Positions 4,526 to 8,621 of a DNA stretch of 44,134 nt are shown here, piece after piece. Made by a program: the position numbers and the translations under genes. This DNA comes from an uncultured Gammaproteobacteria bacterium (GTDB lineage: Bacteria; Pseudomonadota; Gammaproteobacteria; CAWJPQ01), in NCBI GenBank assembly GCA_964463055.1, contig CAYXAX010000003.1, positions 1-44,134 of the forward strand, given 5' to 3'. The notes beneath the pieces are model-generated. The model had not been told where the DNA came from, did no database searches, and was given only the letters and a program-made list of their open reading frames with translations. Numbering within the stretch: position 1 is the first letter of the stretch; each line of letters starts with the position of its first letter.

Positions 4526-6571
4526 ATGTCTAGCGGATTGCGTCATACACCGCCTTACACAACTGTTCTATTGTTGGCCGGAATGTGCCTCATCGCCACG
4601 CTGGCCTACCTGCCGGGACTGTCCGGAGATTTTATCTTCGACGACATTGGCAATCTCGTCCATAACGACCAAATCAAGCTGCATGACCTCAGCAGTGAAT
4701 CCATAGCAGGCGCCATGATGGCGAGTCACAGCGGACCGCTGAAACGCCCCATCAGCATGCTCAGCTTCGGACTCAATTACTACTTCGCCGGCATGGATGC
4801 GTTCTATTTCAAACTCACCAACCTCGTCATTCACCTGCTCAACGGCATCGGGCTGTTCTTTCTGACTCGACTCATACTGCGGGTATACCGGCAACGGTCT
4901 GAACACCGACTGACGGACGCCCACATTATTATCACAAGCGCGGCGATCAGCGCTGCATGGCTTCTACACCCCCTGAATCTGACCGGCGTCCTTTATGTGG
5001 TCCAGCGCATGACCAGCCTGTCGGCGCTGTTCGTCATCTGGGGACTGGTGTGCTACACGGCGGGACGGCAGCGTATCAATGACGGCCGCCCCGGCCTGGC
5101 ACTGATCCTCACGGGCCTGCTGGCATTCACCCCGTTGGCCGTGCTGAGCAAGGAAAACGGCGCCCTGCTGCCCGTGTTCATGCTTGTCATCGAATACGTC
5201 ATGTTCGGCTTTGAAACACCCCGGCCACAACAGCGGCGATTTCTATACGGCCTGTTTGGGCTGTCCATCCTCGTCCCAGCGGCGATCATCGCGGTTTACA
5301 CCCTGATCAATCCTCATTGGCTGATGGGCGGTTACCAAATCCGCCAATTCGACATGACCGAGCGCCTGCTCACCGAGAGTCGGGTGCTGTGGTTCTATCT
5401 CAAGTTGATACTGGCGCCCACCGCCAGTCAATTGGGCCTGTTTCATGATGATTTTCCCATATCTCACAACCTGCTCGATCCGCACTCTACGCTGCCGGCG
5501 GTGATCGGCCTCGGAGCGCTGTTGGCATTGGCGTTCTGGTCACGGCGCCGCGCACCCCTGATTGCACTGGGCCTGTTGTGGTTCTTCGTCGGCCACAGCA
5601 TGGAATCCACCGTGCTGCCCCTTGAGCTGGTTCACGAACATCGCAACTACCTGCCCGCGTACGGAATTCTGGTGATCGCTGTCTACTATCTGCTTTACCC
5701 TTTCGCCTTCACCACGATCCTGCGCGGACGGCAGGCCTTCGCCGCGGCATTCATTGTCCTGCTTGGCATCGGTACCGCGGTACGCGCCAGCGACTGGGGC
5801 AACCCGGCGCTGTTGGCCGTTATTGAAGCGGCCCATCACCCGGAATCCGCGCGGGCCAATCACTATGTCGCCGTTATGTATGCGGCCCTCGCGGGCGCGG
5901 CCAAAGCCCCCGAGAAAAAAGACAAGTATTACCGAATGTCTCTGTCTCACTTTGAAACCGCCGCCCGTACGGGAGGGAACGACGTGGACGGTTGGGTCGG
6001 CGTACTGGTACTGAGAGACAATTTCGGTCACCCGCCCGATGAGCACGTGGTGGACACACTGGTAGACCGCCTGCAACATGCGCCCTTTGCCAATAATACC
6101 GCAAACGATCTCTTCGAGTTGGTGAAGTGCGAGGAAAAGAAACAGTGCCATATTCCCTTGGCCATCATGGGAAGGCTTTTCACGGCGGCCCTGAAAAACC
6201 CCAGCCTCACGAGGAGCTCGCGCTCCATGGTACTCATGTCCGCCGCGGAGCACCTCGTCGATAATGTCGGCAACATCCGCGATGCCGTGGCCATGGCATC
6301 GGAGGCCGTGAGCCTCGGACCGGATAACCTCACAAATCGACTCAGCCTAATAAAACTTTTGATTGTCAGCCATCATTACGCACGGGCAAGCGATCAAATC
6401 GAAAAGGCCAGGCGGCTGGACAAATTGGGGATCTATGCCCAGCAGATCGCGGAACAGGAGCAGGCCCTGATGCTGGCGCAAAAGCCACAGCAGACGCAGC
6501 ACGACGCATTGTCCGGATCAACTGCCGGCGGCAAGAATATCGAGATCCTGGGGGACAACCGGGGCTCGTAA
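4526..6571 (+). CDS. TMTC-like GT-C fold glycosyltransferase with C-terminal helical-repeat (TPR-like) domain, paralogue 1
   Basis: About 10 or more hydrophobic helices. The first-loop acidic motif GDFIFDDIGNLVHND follows TM1. A conserved ELVHEHRNYLP block is present (DUF1736-like, from memory). The C-terminal ~250 aa are helical repeats with a CEEKKQCH motif. Start chosen at MSSGLRH. Confidence 0.7.
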   Translation: MSSGLRHTPPYTTVLLLAGMCLIATLAYLPGLSGDFIFDDIGNLVHNDQIKLHDLSSESIAGAMMASHSGPLKRPISMLSFGLNYYFAGMDAFYFKLTNLVIHLLNGIGLFFLTRLILRVYRQRSEHRLTDAHIIITSAAISAAWLLHPLNLTGVLYVVQRMTSLSALFVIWGLVCYTAGRQRINDGRPGLALILTGLLAFTPLAVLSKENGALLPVFMLVIEYVMFGFETPRPQQRRFLYGLFGLSILVPAAIIAVYTLINPHWLMGGYQIRQFDMTERLLTESRVLWFYLKLILAPTASQLGLFHDDFPISHNLLDPHSTLPAVIGLGALLALAFWSRRRAPLIALGLLWFFVGHSMESTVLPLELVHEHRNYLPAYGILVIAVYYLLYPFAFTTILRGRQAFAAAFIVLLGIGTAVRASDWGNPALLAVIEAAHHPESARANHYVAVMYAALAGAAKAPEKKDKYYRMSLSHFETAARTGGNDVDGWVGVLVLRDNFGHPPDEHVVDTLVDRLQHAPFANNTANDLFELVKCEEKKQCHIPLAIMGRLFTAALKNPSLTRSSRSMVLMSAAEHLVDNVGNIRDAVAMASEAVSLGPDNLTNRLSLIKLLIVSHHYARASDQIEKARRLDKLGIYAQQIAEQEQALMLAQKPQQTQHDALSGSTAGGKNIEILGDNRGS

Positions 6572-6647
6572 CCTATCAGCCGGACTCTACGTATCCGACC
6601 GATTGCTTTATCATGGCAGGGATCTCTCTTGTCTGCAGTGGACGCAA

Positions 6648-8621
6648 ATGATGCCCCCACGTCTTTTGTCAAACGACAAAGTCCTCATCACCTTTTCCCT
6701 CTTGCTGGTACTGGCCGGCACTGCCTGGGCCTATTACCCCGGCCTGCACGGCGGATTTGTCTTCGATGACCTGACTAATATCAATGACAATGACGCCATC
6801 GCCGTCACACACCTGGATGCACAGTCGCTGGAACAGGCGGCGGTTTCCCGCAGCGGGGGCATTTCCAGCCGCGCGATCAGTATGGCGAGTTTCGCCATAA
6901 ATTATTATTACAGCCAGCTCAATCCGTTCGCCTACAAAGCCACCAATCTGGCCGTGCACCTGCTCAACGGCGTGGCGCTGTTTTTCCTCACCGGCTTGAT
7001 TCTCCGGGCCTACCGCGACCGTCACGATACCCGTCTTAGCACCCTTCACATACGTATCCTCAGCGTGGTGGTCGCCGCCGCGTGGCTGCTGCACCCCATC
7101 AATCTCACCAACGTGCTGTATGTCGTGCAGCGCATGAACAGTCTGAGTACGTTGTTCATTGTGTTGGGGCTGATATGTTATTTACACGGGCGGCGACGTT
7201 TCGACCAAGGCCCATGGGGGGTGGTGCTGATCTTGGCGGCCTTCGCGGTGTTCACGCCTATTGCCATCCTGTGCAAGGAAAACGGCGCACTGCTGCCTCT
7301 ATACGCCTTCGTGCTTGAAATGACTCTGTTCGGCATGCGCAGCGGGCGGCCCCGCGGGCGGGTGTTTCTATGGTGCGTGTTCGGCGTATTTCTGCTGCTG
7401 CCGCTGCTGGGGTTCCTCGTCTATATGTTTTTGCATCCCGACTGGCTGGCGAACGGCTATCTCAACCGCGACTTCACTCTGGGCGAGCGCCTGCTCACCG
7501 AGGCGCGGGTATTGTGGTTCTATCTGCTCATCATCCTGGTACCGGATATCCGCTTCATGGGGCTGTACCATGACGATATGGCAGTCTCCCACGGCCTATT
7601 CCACCCGCTCACCACGGCACCGGCGCTGGCCGGGATCGCGCTGCTGTTTGCCGCCGCGGCGCTGTGCCGTCGACGCGCCCCCATGGTGACACTGGGCATC
7701 CTGTTCTTTTTTGCGGGTCACAGCATGGAGTCCACCATACTCCCGCTGGAATTGGTACACGAGCACCGCAACTATCTGCCCGTGTACGGCATCCTGCTGG
7801 CATTTTTCTATTACATCGCTCACCCCGGGTTGCGCTGGAACCGTTGGCGGCTGCGTCATGCCGCCGCCGTTGTCTTCATCGGCGCCTTCGCCACGGCGAC
7901 CACCGTCAGGGCCTCTCAGTGGGGCGACCTGAGAGTATTCAACCGTGTCGAGGTCGCCCATCACCCAAAATCCCCCCGGGCCAATTTCGGGCTGGGTGAG
8001 GAGTACTTCAATGATATGAAAAACGGCGCGCCGGACCGCGCGGAAAATTTCCGCAAGGCGCGCCAATATTTCGCACGAGCCACGCTGGCTGACAAACATT
8101 TCACCAACGGGCTGTTCGGCATGGTCATCCTTTATACGTCCGTTAAGATGGACATTCCCCCGGTCATCATCAGCATGCTGGCGCAGCGCCTGGCACTCGT
8201 GCCCATTGCCAATAACACCACCAATATGCTGGCAAAACTGATCACCTGCCAGGAAATTCACACCTGTCACCTTACACAGGTGGAGTTGGCACGACTGATG
8301 GTCGCGGCGGTAAGCAACAAGACCCTGCGCGGCACCCACAAGGCATCGGTACTGACCTCCGCAAGCCGCTATTTCGCGCTGCAGAATAATTACCCGGAGG
8401 CGCTGCGTTATGCAGAACACGCCGCTCAGAGCGCTCCCGGCGAGCTGCAGTACCGACTCAACGTGGTCTACTGGCTGATAAGCATGGGCAGACTGGACGA
8501 GGCGCAACGCAGACTCGCCGCGGCCCAGGCCGCGGATACCCTGGGACGCCATGCACAATACATTGCCGAACAGGAGAAACGACTTAAGGATGCGCGATTT
8601 GTACAGCAACTCTCCCGATAA
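6648..8621 (+). CDS. TMTC-like GT-C fold glycosyltransferase with C-terminal helical-repeat (TPR-like) domain, paralogue 2
   Basis: Colinear with paralogue 1: GGFVFDDLTNINDND, VLYVVQRMNSLS, KENGALLP, ELVHEHRNYLP and CQEIHTCH. The ORF-track start at 6603 is TTG; the first in-frame ATG codons are at 6648 and 6651. Confidence 0.7.
   Translation: MMPPRLLSNDKVLITFSLLLVLAGTAWAYYPGLHGGFVFDDLTNINDNDAIAVTHLDAQSLEQAAVSRSGGISSRAISMASFAINYYYSQLNPFAYKATNLAVHLLNGVALFFLTGLILRAYRDRHDTRLSTLHIRILSVVVAAAWLLHPINLTNVLYVVQRMNSLSTLFIVLGLICYLHGRRRFDQGPWGVVLILAAFAVFTPIAILCKENGALLPLYAFVLEMTLFGMRSGRPRGRVFLWCVFGVFLLLPLLGFLVYMFLHPDWLANGYLNRDFTLGERLLTEARVLWFYLLIILVPDIRFMGLYHDDMAVSHGLFHPLTTAPALAGIALLFAAAALCRRRAPMVTLGILFFFAGHSMESTILPLELVHEHRNYLPVYGILLAFFYYIAHPGLRWNRWRLRHAAAVVFIGAFATATTVRASQWGDLRVFNRVEVAHHPKSPRANFGLGEEYFNDMKNGAPDRAENFRKARQYFARATLADKHFTNGLFGMVILYTSVKMDIPPVIISMLAQRLALVPIANNTTNMLAKLITCQEIHTCHLTQVELARLMVAAVSNKTLRGTHKASVLTSASRYFALQNNYPEALRYAEHAAQSAPGELQYRLNVVYWLISMGRLDEAQRRLAAAQAADTLGRHAQYIAEQEKRLKDARFVQQLSR

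Follow-up and report, generated by a model that had tools for sequence, protein, structure and literature searches.

What do two similar membrane proteins do when their genes stand side by side directly behind the gene of a type IV pilin? The question is raised by a contig (CAYXAX010000003.1, assembly GCA_964463055.1) of an uncultured gammaproteobacterium, of which we analysed positions 1 to 44,134 of the forward strand, called the window below. Two open reading frames (ORFs) on the + strand were studied: ORF1 (4526..6571, 681 aa), with about 11 transmembrane (TM) helices in residues 1-425 followed by about 12 helices of tetratricopeptide (TPR)-like repeats, and ORF2 (6648..8621, 657 aa). Our results revealed that they are paralogues and support a GT-C glycosyltransferase fold of the TMTC type for their membrane domain. 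We consider it likely, though well short of certain, that both are periplasm-facing, lipid-phosphate-sugar-dependent protein O-glycosyltransferases and that their acceptor is the type IV pilin encoded upstream.

Two paralogues with a TMTC-like membrane domain

The two ORFs were 43% identical over 646 residues with 7 gaps (BLASTP, E 8e-165). This similarity is far beyond chance, and the ORFs are colinear paralogues, as the sequence-only reading of this DNA had described them with lengths of about 680 and 660 aa. The same reading had held that the membrane core is conserved and the C-terminal repeats diverged, and we found 50.8% identity in the membrane part (residues 1-425) and 30.0% in the C-terminal part. 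All six of the motif blocks it had listed were recovered in both ORFs in the same order: FIFDD/FVFDD (ORF1 residue 36, ORF2 residue 37), LHP[LI]NLT..LYVVQRM.SLS (147, 148), KENGALLP (209, 210), RLLTE[SA]RVLWFYL (280, 281), GHSMEST[VI]LPLELVHEHRNYLP (356, 357) and C-x5-CH (535, 534). For ORF1 the start at ATG 4526 is more plausible than the TTG at 4469 or the public 697-aa gene call, because a GAAGGG ribosome-binding site stands just before it and because the longer frames read through a terminator-like hairpin at 4475-4506. The mechanical ORF2 opens at TTG 6603. Its start is likely the in-frame ATG 6648, where the public record and the annotation of a close relative also begin the gene.

Among 40 family members 64 alignment columns were invariant, and both ORFs retained all of them. 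They include D39 and D40, R74, K96, H103, H148-P149-N151, K209-E210, R280, R286, H307-D308-D309 and E371-H-R-N-Y375. In the Cys-x5-Cys of the C-terminal domain, one Cys was invariant and the other was present in at least 90% of the 40 members, a conserved pair that would fit a periplasmic disulfide. The duplication could not be dated from a neighbour-joining tree of the family, which was too star-like, and ORF1 and ORF2 were not sister sequences in it. Six GT-C copies, from our loci L030, L031, L065, L066, L072 and L080, formed a separate deep subfamily. They are second copies in L030 and L065, the only loci with both copies in the tree, where they are 23-26% identical to their first-copy neighbours; in contrast, ORF1 and ORF2 of the window belong to the same subfamily. 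In L031, L066, L072 and L080 the deep-subfamily copy was the sole one to pass the motif filter, and tblastn detected one further GT-C copy in each.

Searches of Pfam and NCBIfam with both ORFs and the 40 aligned members gave, at permissive thresholds, only weak TPR matches and left the membrane domain unmatched. Sequence and profile searches of the PDB with the ORFs found TPR proteins only. The AlphaFold2 model of ORF1 (pLDDT 86.8, pTM 0.84) showed a helical membrane bundle and then about 12 TPR-like helices, and TPR proteins dominated the Foldseek matches of this full-length model. The membrane domain of ORF2 was modelled alone (AlphaFold2, pLDDT 86.7, pTM 0.90) for Foldseek against the PDB. 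Its top 18 matches were all GT-C enzymes (STT3, PglB, AglB, Pmt4, PimE, DPY19 and ArnT), with probabilities that were mostly 1.0 and never below 0.90 and TMq of 0.33-0.52; the next matches stood at 0.2 or below. These models support a GT-C fold for the membrane domain of both ORFs. The earlier assignment to GT-C plus TPR was thus upheld, with GT-C enzymes alone as top Foldseek matches and TPR matches at the C-terminus. A placement in a non-glycosyltransferase family, named beforehand as the contrary outcome, was not seen.

The predicted topology places the catalytic loop outside the cytoplasm. In the ORF1 model the Arg-rich segments RVYRQR, GRQRIN, PRPQQRRF, SRRRA and LRGRQ lie on one side of the membrane, and EL1, EL4 and EL5, which are acidic and hold all invariant polar residues, lie on the opposite side. 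D39-D40 stand 7 residues past TM1, in a loop that is acidic and lies across the membrane from the Arg-rich ones, and align with the DD motif of TMTC. The hydrophobic helix at residues 277-296 of ORF1 was read as a non-spanning EL4 helix, which would leave 11 membrane spans; the equivalent helix is non-spanning in TMTC and ArnT (PMC7801869). By the positive-inside rule and homology, the N-terminus is predicted to be cytoplasmic, and the DD loop (EL1) and the C-terminal domain to be periplasmic. A non-cytoplasmic first loop, predicted by the same rule and by homology (PMC7801869), agrees with the earlier expectation that the DD motif faces the periplasm.

Which GT-C enzymes are closest? We compared the family with the curated N-terminal-domain alignment of eight TMTCs in the supplement of Eisenhaber et al. 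(2021; PMC7801869). In hhalign, the family membrane-domain profile matched TMTC1-4 with 99.1% probability (E 1.7e-18; 379 columns, 21% identity), and the alignment covered essentially the whole membrane domain. The hidden Markov model (HMM) of the family scored 37-72 bits against all eight TMTCs, and the TMTC HMM scored 37-72 bits against all 40 family members. In the same HMM comparison the controls from the published alignment, ArnT (7 bits) and yeast Pmt1 (-6 bits), were not significant. These reciprocal scores and the hhalign result support a specifically TMTC-like membrane domain, as the sequence-only reading had proposed. The motifs correspond in order, with roles in metal, acceptor and phosphate binding as assigned for TMTC (PMC7801869): GxFxFDD of the family to FV[FHY]DD (EL1, catalytic acids), SGPLxRP to SHKSYRP (EL1, phosphate contact), HPLNLT..V..VQR to HPIHTEAV..VGR (EL2), KENG to KE[TQ]G (EL3), and HEHRNYLP to AERVLYxPS (EL5, with the donor-phosphate-binding arginine). 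The last correspondence overturns one earlier attribution. HEHRNYLP had been taken for part of DUF1736, which is the TM7-TM8 loop of TMTC (PMC7801869). The counterpart of that loop is the RLLTE.RVLWFYL...HDD stretch, where the hhalign alignment shares few residues (R280, T283, P298 and D308). Pfam DUF1736 had no match in ORF1 or ORF2 at E up to 10, nor in the 40 members at E up to 1, and the stretch is too diverged for the Pfam model.

Thus the closest known proteins by sequence are the eukaryotic TMTC1-4 (CAZy GT105). Both groups have a GT-C domain of about 11 TM helices, a cytoplasmic N-terminus and a TPR domain beyond the membrane (predicted here), with DD and xxxRP in EL1, HPx[HN]xT in EL2, KExG in EL3 and ERxxYxP in EL5. 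In analogy with TMTC, one would expect a GT2 of the DPM1/GtrB type to supply the donor, a polyprenyl-monophosphate monosaccharide, and a folded, beta-rich adhesion protein to be the acceptor. However, the window pair is bacterial and periplasmic, is only about 21% identical to TMTC over the aligned columns, lacks a Pfam DUF1736 match, carries HDD in place of the EL4 DW motif and has about 6 TPR-like hairpins instead of 8-10. Furthermore, TMTC enzymes transfer mannose from dolichyl-phosphate mannose to cadherin-type domains, whereas the acceptor here would be a pilin. No TMTC structure was among the PDB matches of the ORF models, and the published TMTC models rest on ArnT homology (PMC7801869). 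On bacterial homologues, Eisenhaber et al. say only that TMTC homologues occur "even among prokaryotes" (PMC7801869).

Linkage to pilA and to a GtrB-like synthase

The family comprises at least 6,366 clusters at 90% identity. With the membrane domain alone, 25,312, 14,155 and 5,312 representatives were found at E <=1e-3, <=1e-10 and <=1e-30, respectively, and yet the catalytic domain of this family is covered by no Pfam or NCBIfam model. Members are annotated as "hypothetical", "TPR repeat protein" or, by JGI, "protein O-mannosyl-transferase". A tblastn search over 72,556 plasmids returned no homologue. To learn what such genes keep company with, we used 80 related loci from species-representative genomes, with taxa that include Gallionella, Undibacterium, Novimethylophilus, Methylococcales, Lysobacteraceae, Dokdonella, Acidiferrobacterales and one metagenome-assembled genome (MAG) of Pseudomonas. 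The recurrent order was pilA, a terminator hairpin, one to three GT-C copies, and a GtrB/ArnC/DPMS-like GT2. In 56 of the 68 loci with enough flank, a type IVa pilin gene preceded the GT-C gene at no more than 1 kb and in the same orientation; over many orders of beta- and gammaproteobacteria, the median gap between pilA and the GT-C gene was about 160 nt. A GT2 that was 58-70% identical to that of the window (8761-9630) followed the GT-C gene in 52 of 69 loci. Of the 80 loci, 21 had two or three GT-C copies and 59 a single one. This gene context is the strongest evidence for a pilin-linked module. No pilA-linked TMTC-like GT-C partnered by a GtrB-like enzyme was described in the literature that we searched.

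The window itself has the same arrangement. The gene directly upstream of ORF1 (4031..4453, + strand) encodes a type IVa major pilin of 140 aa (Pfam Pilin 6.7e-16, N_methyl 5.1e-11), as the sequence-only reading had said, and this pilin is the proposed acceptor. Ser and Thr make up 35% of its globular part, near the top of the range of pilins encoded beside the family (13-38%, median 24%). The polyprenyl-phosphate monosaccharide synthase gene (8761..9630, + strand) encodes a Glycos_transf_2 protein of the GtrB/ArnC/DPMS/AglJ-like type with two C-terminal hydrophobic helices. Its best NCBIfam matches were AglJ, PpgS, dolichyl-phosphate hexose transferase and ArnC, and its best PDB matches were ArnC, Pyrococcus DPMS and GtrB, the last over the full length with the C-terminal helices included. 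From these similarities, we propose that it makes the lipid-linked donor.

Regulatory elements around pilA were also recognizable. The genes pilS (675-2324) and pilR (2324-3652), both on the + strand, encode a two-component regulator of pilin transcription; the copies in a close relative, L081, have 6TM_PilS/HisKA/HATPase_c and Response_reg/Sigma54_activat/HTH_8 domains, respectively. A sigma-54-type promoter-like element, TGGCAC-N5-CTGCA (3859..3874, + strand, GG and GC 12 nt apart), precedes the start codon of pilA by about 155 nt. Because a gene for PilR, a sigma-54 activator, adjoins, this element probably serves as the pilA promoter. The same consensus scan gave a sigma-70-like site at 3748-3777. 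Between pilA and ORF1 is the intrinsic-terminator-like hairpin (4475..4512, + strand) with a 14-bp stem, a 4-nt loop and a T tract. Of 70 related loci, 64 had a comparable hairpin with a T tract behind their last pilin gene, which suggests a conserved attenuation of accessory-gene expression; such a post-pilin hairpin has been described as a common throttle on accessory genes (PMC11841053). Downstream, pilB, pilC and pilD (16225..20108, + strand; Pfam T2SSE/MshEN, T2SSF and Peptidase_A24) close the pilus locus, so that the entire glycosylation island occupies the interval from pilA to pilBCD, the classical place of pilin accessory genes.

Proposed pilin glycosylation and its alternatives

From the paralogy, the GT-C fold, the TMTC-type homology with its motifs and the conserved synteny, we infer the following scheme. 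PilS/PilR and sigma-54 would drive pilA, and the hairpin 3' of it would let only a fraction of the transcripts reach the accessory genes. On the cytoplasmic face, the GtrB/DPMS-like GT2 would charge undecaprenyl phosphate with a monosaccharide taken from a nucleotide sugar. The lipid-linked sugar would then be flipped across the membrane, for which an LPG_synthase_TM-like protein of the island is a candidate. In the periplasm, catalysis and contact with the acceptor would fall to the first-loop DD of each GT-C, the arginine of HEHRNYLP in EL5 would hold the donor phosphate, and the TPR domain would dock the folded, membrane-anchored pilin, whose Ser/Thr residues would receive the sugar before fibre assembly. 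If TfpO and TfpW are a guide, the module probably serves to mask the pilus against pilus-specific phages and comparable recognition of the surface; phages are in fact blocked by pilin glycosylation (bioRxiv 10.1101/150227).

Why are there two copies? Orthologues of both were present in the same order on three contigs from close relatives, L081, L082 and L083. Identities to the window copies were, in this order, 86, 91 and 71% for ORF1 and 97, 83 and 79% for ORF2; in the TPR domains alone they were 77, 88 and 63% for ORF1 and 99, 76 and 77% for ORF2. The corresponding values were 86, 87 and 75% for pilA and 100, 89 and 89% for the GT2 synthase, which was among the most conserved island genes in every comparison. 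The TPR domains were more diverged than the membrane domains in five of six comparisons (the exception was ORF2 against L081), and their divergence was at least equal to that of the pilin in most. Since orthologues are 71-97% identical and the paralogues 43%, the duplication is older than the split of these four lineages. The ratio of nonsynonymous to synonymous substitution rates (dN/dS) against L081 was 0.18-0.32 for both copies, which indicates purifying selection and thus that both are maintained. Being old, orthologously retained and under purifying selection, neither copy is redundant with the other. The most likely arrangement is that each acts on its own sites of the pilin, or that one starts the glycan and the other extends it. 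The sequence-only reading had suggested that the two may differ in acceptor site or donor.

The comparison with L081 also revealed a sharply bounded change. The flanks were 98-100% identical, and nucleotide identity fell to 66-94% in a block from about 4150 to about 6900 that spans the variable part of pilA, all of ORF1 and the first ~250 nt of ORF2. Synonymous divergence was 0.24-0.57 in the block vs 0.01-0.07 in ORF2. Judged from the sequences, this looks like an allelic replacement of pilA together with the adjacent GT-C gene by recombination, and it resembles the pilin-plus-accessory-gene cassettes of P. aeruginosa. In L082, however, the TPR domain of ORF2 was the one that diverged more. 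Because the L081 pattern was not repeated there, we draw no firm division of labour between the copies.

Several other points weigh against our proposal. The Foldseek E-values were modest (best 2.7e-3, TM-score about 0.5). The evidence that would make the pilin the acceptor consists solely of gene linkage and precedent, and 12 of the 68 loci had no adjacent pilA. The GT2 synthase was absent from the flank examined in 17 of 69 loci. The nearby cytidine diphosphate (CDP)-sugar pathway has no 4,6-dehydratase gene, and its GT2 partner resembles a glycan-extending enzyme. The LPG_synthase_TM match of the candidate flippase was under the Pfam cut-off (28 vs 33.4 bits), and no GtrA-type flippase gene was seen, where the large ORFs leave no gtrA-sized gap and small ORFs were not scanned.

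Two alternatives deserve weighing against independent pilin glycosyltransferases. The first is that the paralogues form an obligate heterodimer, like yeast Pmt1-Pmt2 or POMT1-POMT2. The tandem arrangement retained in four genomes, the presence of all catalytic invariants in both copies, the Pmt4 and PMT-type enzymes among the structural matches, and the self-interaction of TfpW in two-hybrid assays (bioRxiv 10.1101/2020.04.19.049825) would all agree with it. Yet the prevalence of single-copy loci described above means that the family needs no paralogous partner, and we regard the heterodimer as improbable.

The second, to which we give an equally low probability, is that the enzymes modify not the major pilin but, for example, O-antigen or lipopolysaccharide, another envelope glycan or other periplasmic proteins, and that the gap between pilA and pilB is merely an insertion hotspot. 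In fact, three-component systems of GT2, flippase and GT-C usually act on polysaccharides (PMC11194591), the island holds O-antigen-like sugar genes, and not every locus has pilA directly upstream. A same-strand pilA at so short a gap in many orders is, however, hard to square with chance insertion; the TPR domains and the TMTC homology suggest a protein acceptor, and pilA and ORF1 were swapped as one block. The GtrABC-type three-component systems offer a comparison. Like them, the window combines a GtrB-like polyprenyl-phosphate glycosyltransferase with a GT-C transferase on the periplasmic face. In contrast to them, the GT-C proteins bear a TPR domain and presumably act on a protein rather than on O-antigen, and a GtrA gene was not among the ORFs scanned.

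Are the ORFs simply orthologues of TfpW? TfpW of P. aeruginosa has 646 aa, with 11 TM helices, a TPR part and a DDX motif that is essential. Its gene follows pilA directly, and the protein uses a polyprenyl-phosphate sugar to glycosylate pilin; reporter fusions placed its loop 1 and C-terminal domain in the periplasm (bioRxiv 10.1101/2020.04.19.049825). By function it is the closest known protein. It is the pilin D-arabinofuranosyltransferase of group IV P. aeruginosa and, compared by published description, shares with the window pair a gene just after pilA, a size of about 650 aa, 11 TM helices with a periplasmic TPR domain, DDX in periplasmic loop 1 and, as proposed here, a polyprenyl-phosphate donor. 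TfpW modifies several pilin Ser/Thr residues and has an anti-phage effect, both of which we propose likewise for the window pair. These features in common would suit orthologues that add D-arabinofuranose oligomers from polyprenyl-phosphate arabinose. However, the motif YX6PFX7P, reported as conserved in TfpW homologues, was missing by regular-expression search from both ORFs, from 240 family proteins and from the ORFs of at least 300 aa in L001-L081 and the window. DprE1, DprE2 and DPPR synthase, or other D-arabinofuranose genes, were not found among the Pfam-scanned window ORFs or the neighbours checked in related loci, although such genes are unlinked to pilA in PA7 anyway. Beside the family members that lack the GT2 we saw methyltransferases, DegT aminotransferases, a sulfotransferase and flippase-like proteins, and again no D-arabinofuranose genes. 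The conserved partner here is a GtrB-like, hexose-type synthase, TfpX is absent, and there are two tandem paralogues. A homologue search seeded with a protein of a Pseudomonas MAG led to an Acinetobacter-rich clade with no TfpW name among its members, and the A. venetianus accession cited as a TfpW homologue was not found in cluster look-ups. We consider orthology to TfpW very unlikely. The earlier remark that bacterial members are essentially uncharacterised holds for the family of the window; for the kind of protein it does not, as TfpW is a characterised pilA-linked GT-C/TPR protein.

Least probable of all is that one copy is a catalytically dead or decaying duplicate, at most a pilin chaperone or adaptor: TPR domains can serve as chaperone-like docking modules and non-enzymatic pilin accessory proteins such as TfpY exist (PMC11841053), but 64 of 64 family-invariant residues are kept in both copies, whose frames are intact in four genomes and under the purifying selection described above.

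Protein O-glycosylation of the pilin by both enzymes therefore remains our preferred explanation, and it is in line mechanistically with known GT-C protein glycosylation. PMT/POMT (GT39) and ArnT (GT83) share the GT-C fold and an acidic motif in the first loop with the window pair, and TfpO shares the pilA-adjacent position and the pilin acceptor (proposed here). Unlike PMT and TfpO/PglL, neither the two ORFs nor the 40 members had a Pfam match to PMT, MIR, PMT_2 or Wzy_C, and TfpO/PglL transfer oligosaccharides linked to undecaprenyl diphosphate and are not GT-C/TPR proteins.

The module is widespread and unannotated. Pilin glycosylation from a lipid-monophosphate sugar has so far been tied to one Pseudomonas lineage, that of TfpW, and our results suggest a wide spread in environmental Beta- and Gammaproteobacteria (Gallionella, Undibacterium, Methylococcales, Lysobacteraceae, Acinetobacter), which bears on resistance to phages, on surface recognition and on the diversity of pilins. 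The TMTC enzymes matter in medicine (cobblestone lissencephaly, hearing loss, cancer), and we know of no established account of how their TPR domains pick folded acceptors. A bacterial homologue would be a cheap genetic and biochemical model, with pilin acceptor, donor synthase and regulator in one small operon. A wider reading is more doubtful, and we offer it tentatively. The pair might be the prototype of a very large, so far nameless bacterial TMTC-type clade dedicated to type IV pilins, with thousands of clusters at 50% identity, each hard-wired to a pilin allele and a GtrB-like synthase. Here the two paralogues might work in relay, one using its fast-evolving TPR domain to read the variable surface of the pilin and adding the first sugar, the other adding a further sugar or serving a second set of sites. 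If that were true, the family would be the evolutionary and mechanistic counterpart of animal cadherin O-mannosylation and a tractable model for the selection of folded acceptors by TPR domains.

Further island genes and the rest of the window

Downstream of the GT2 synthase, five genes on the + strand form a nucleotide-sugar set. They encode a glucose-1-phosphate cytidylyltransferase (9724-10491; RfbF, above the equivalog cut-off), a nucleoside-diphosphate-hexose C-methyltransferase (start at ~10482 or 10536, end at 11768), an RmlC-like 3,5-epimerase (11765-12316) and an RmlD-like 4-reductase (12338-13315), both above the equivalog cut-off, and a CmcI/rhamnosyl-type O-methyltransferase (13333-14067). 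This set would presumably yield a CDP-activated, C-methylated and O-methylated 6-deoxyhexose. The 4,6-dehydratase, essential for such a pathway, is missing from the set of the window (9724-14067) and from L081. In L083, a short-chain dehydrogenase/reductase of 358 aa (6402-7478) lies exactly between the cytidylyltransferase and the C-methyltransferase, in the slot of the dehydratase. The CDP-sugar pathway of the window may thus be broken or complemented from elsewhere in the genome.

Two genes on the - strand complete the island. The LPG_synthase_TM-like membrane protein is encoded at 14109-15029, where the match is weak. Proteins with this domain, which resembles the flippase domain of MprF, recur beside the pilA/GT-C module, for example in L015 (9207-9896) and L053 (9191-10159), and the window protein could be the lipid-sugar flippase of the module. 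The second GT2 (15049-15909) is of the soluble, glycan-extending type. A pairing of the two GT-Cs with two lipid-sugar synthases was considered and dropped, as this GT2 resembles soluble glycan-extending GT2s and not the GtrB type. In L081 (18910-20556) the O-methyltransferase was called as a 96-aa fragment and the LPG_synthase_TM-like gene as fragments of 95 and 217 aa, which reflects either island decay or an assembly error.

No further pilus or glycosylation genes were seen in the remainder of the window (20187-44134). Its content is housekeeping-like, with coaE, zapD, a NUDIX/thiamine-phosphate synthase fusion, a bioF/H/C/D-like set, ftsX and ftsY, together with two M16 peptidases, a gamma-glutamyltranspeptidase and a CcoG-like ferredoxin.

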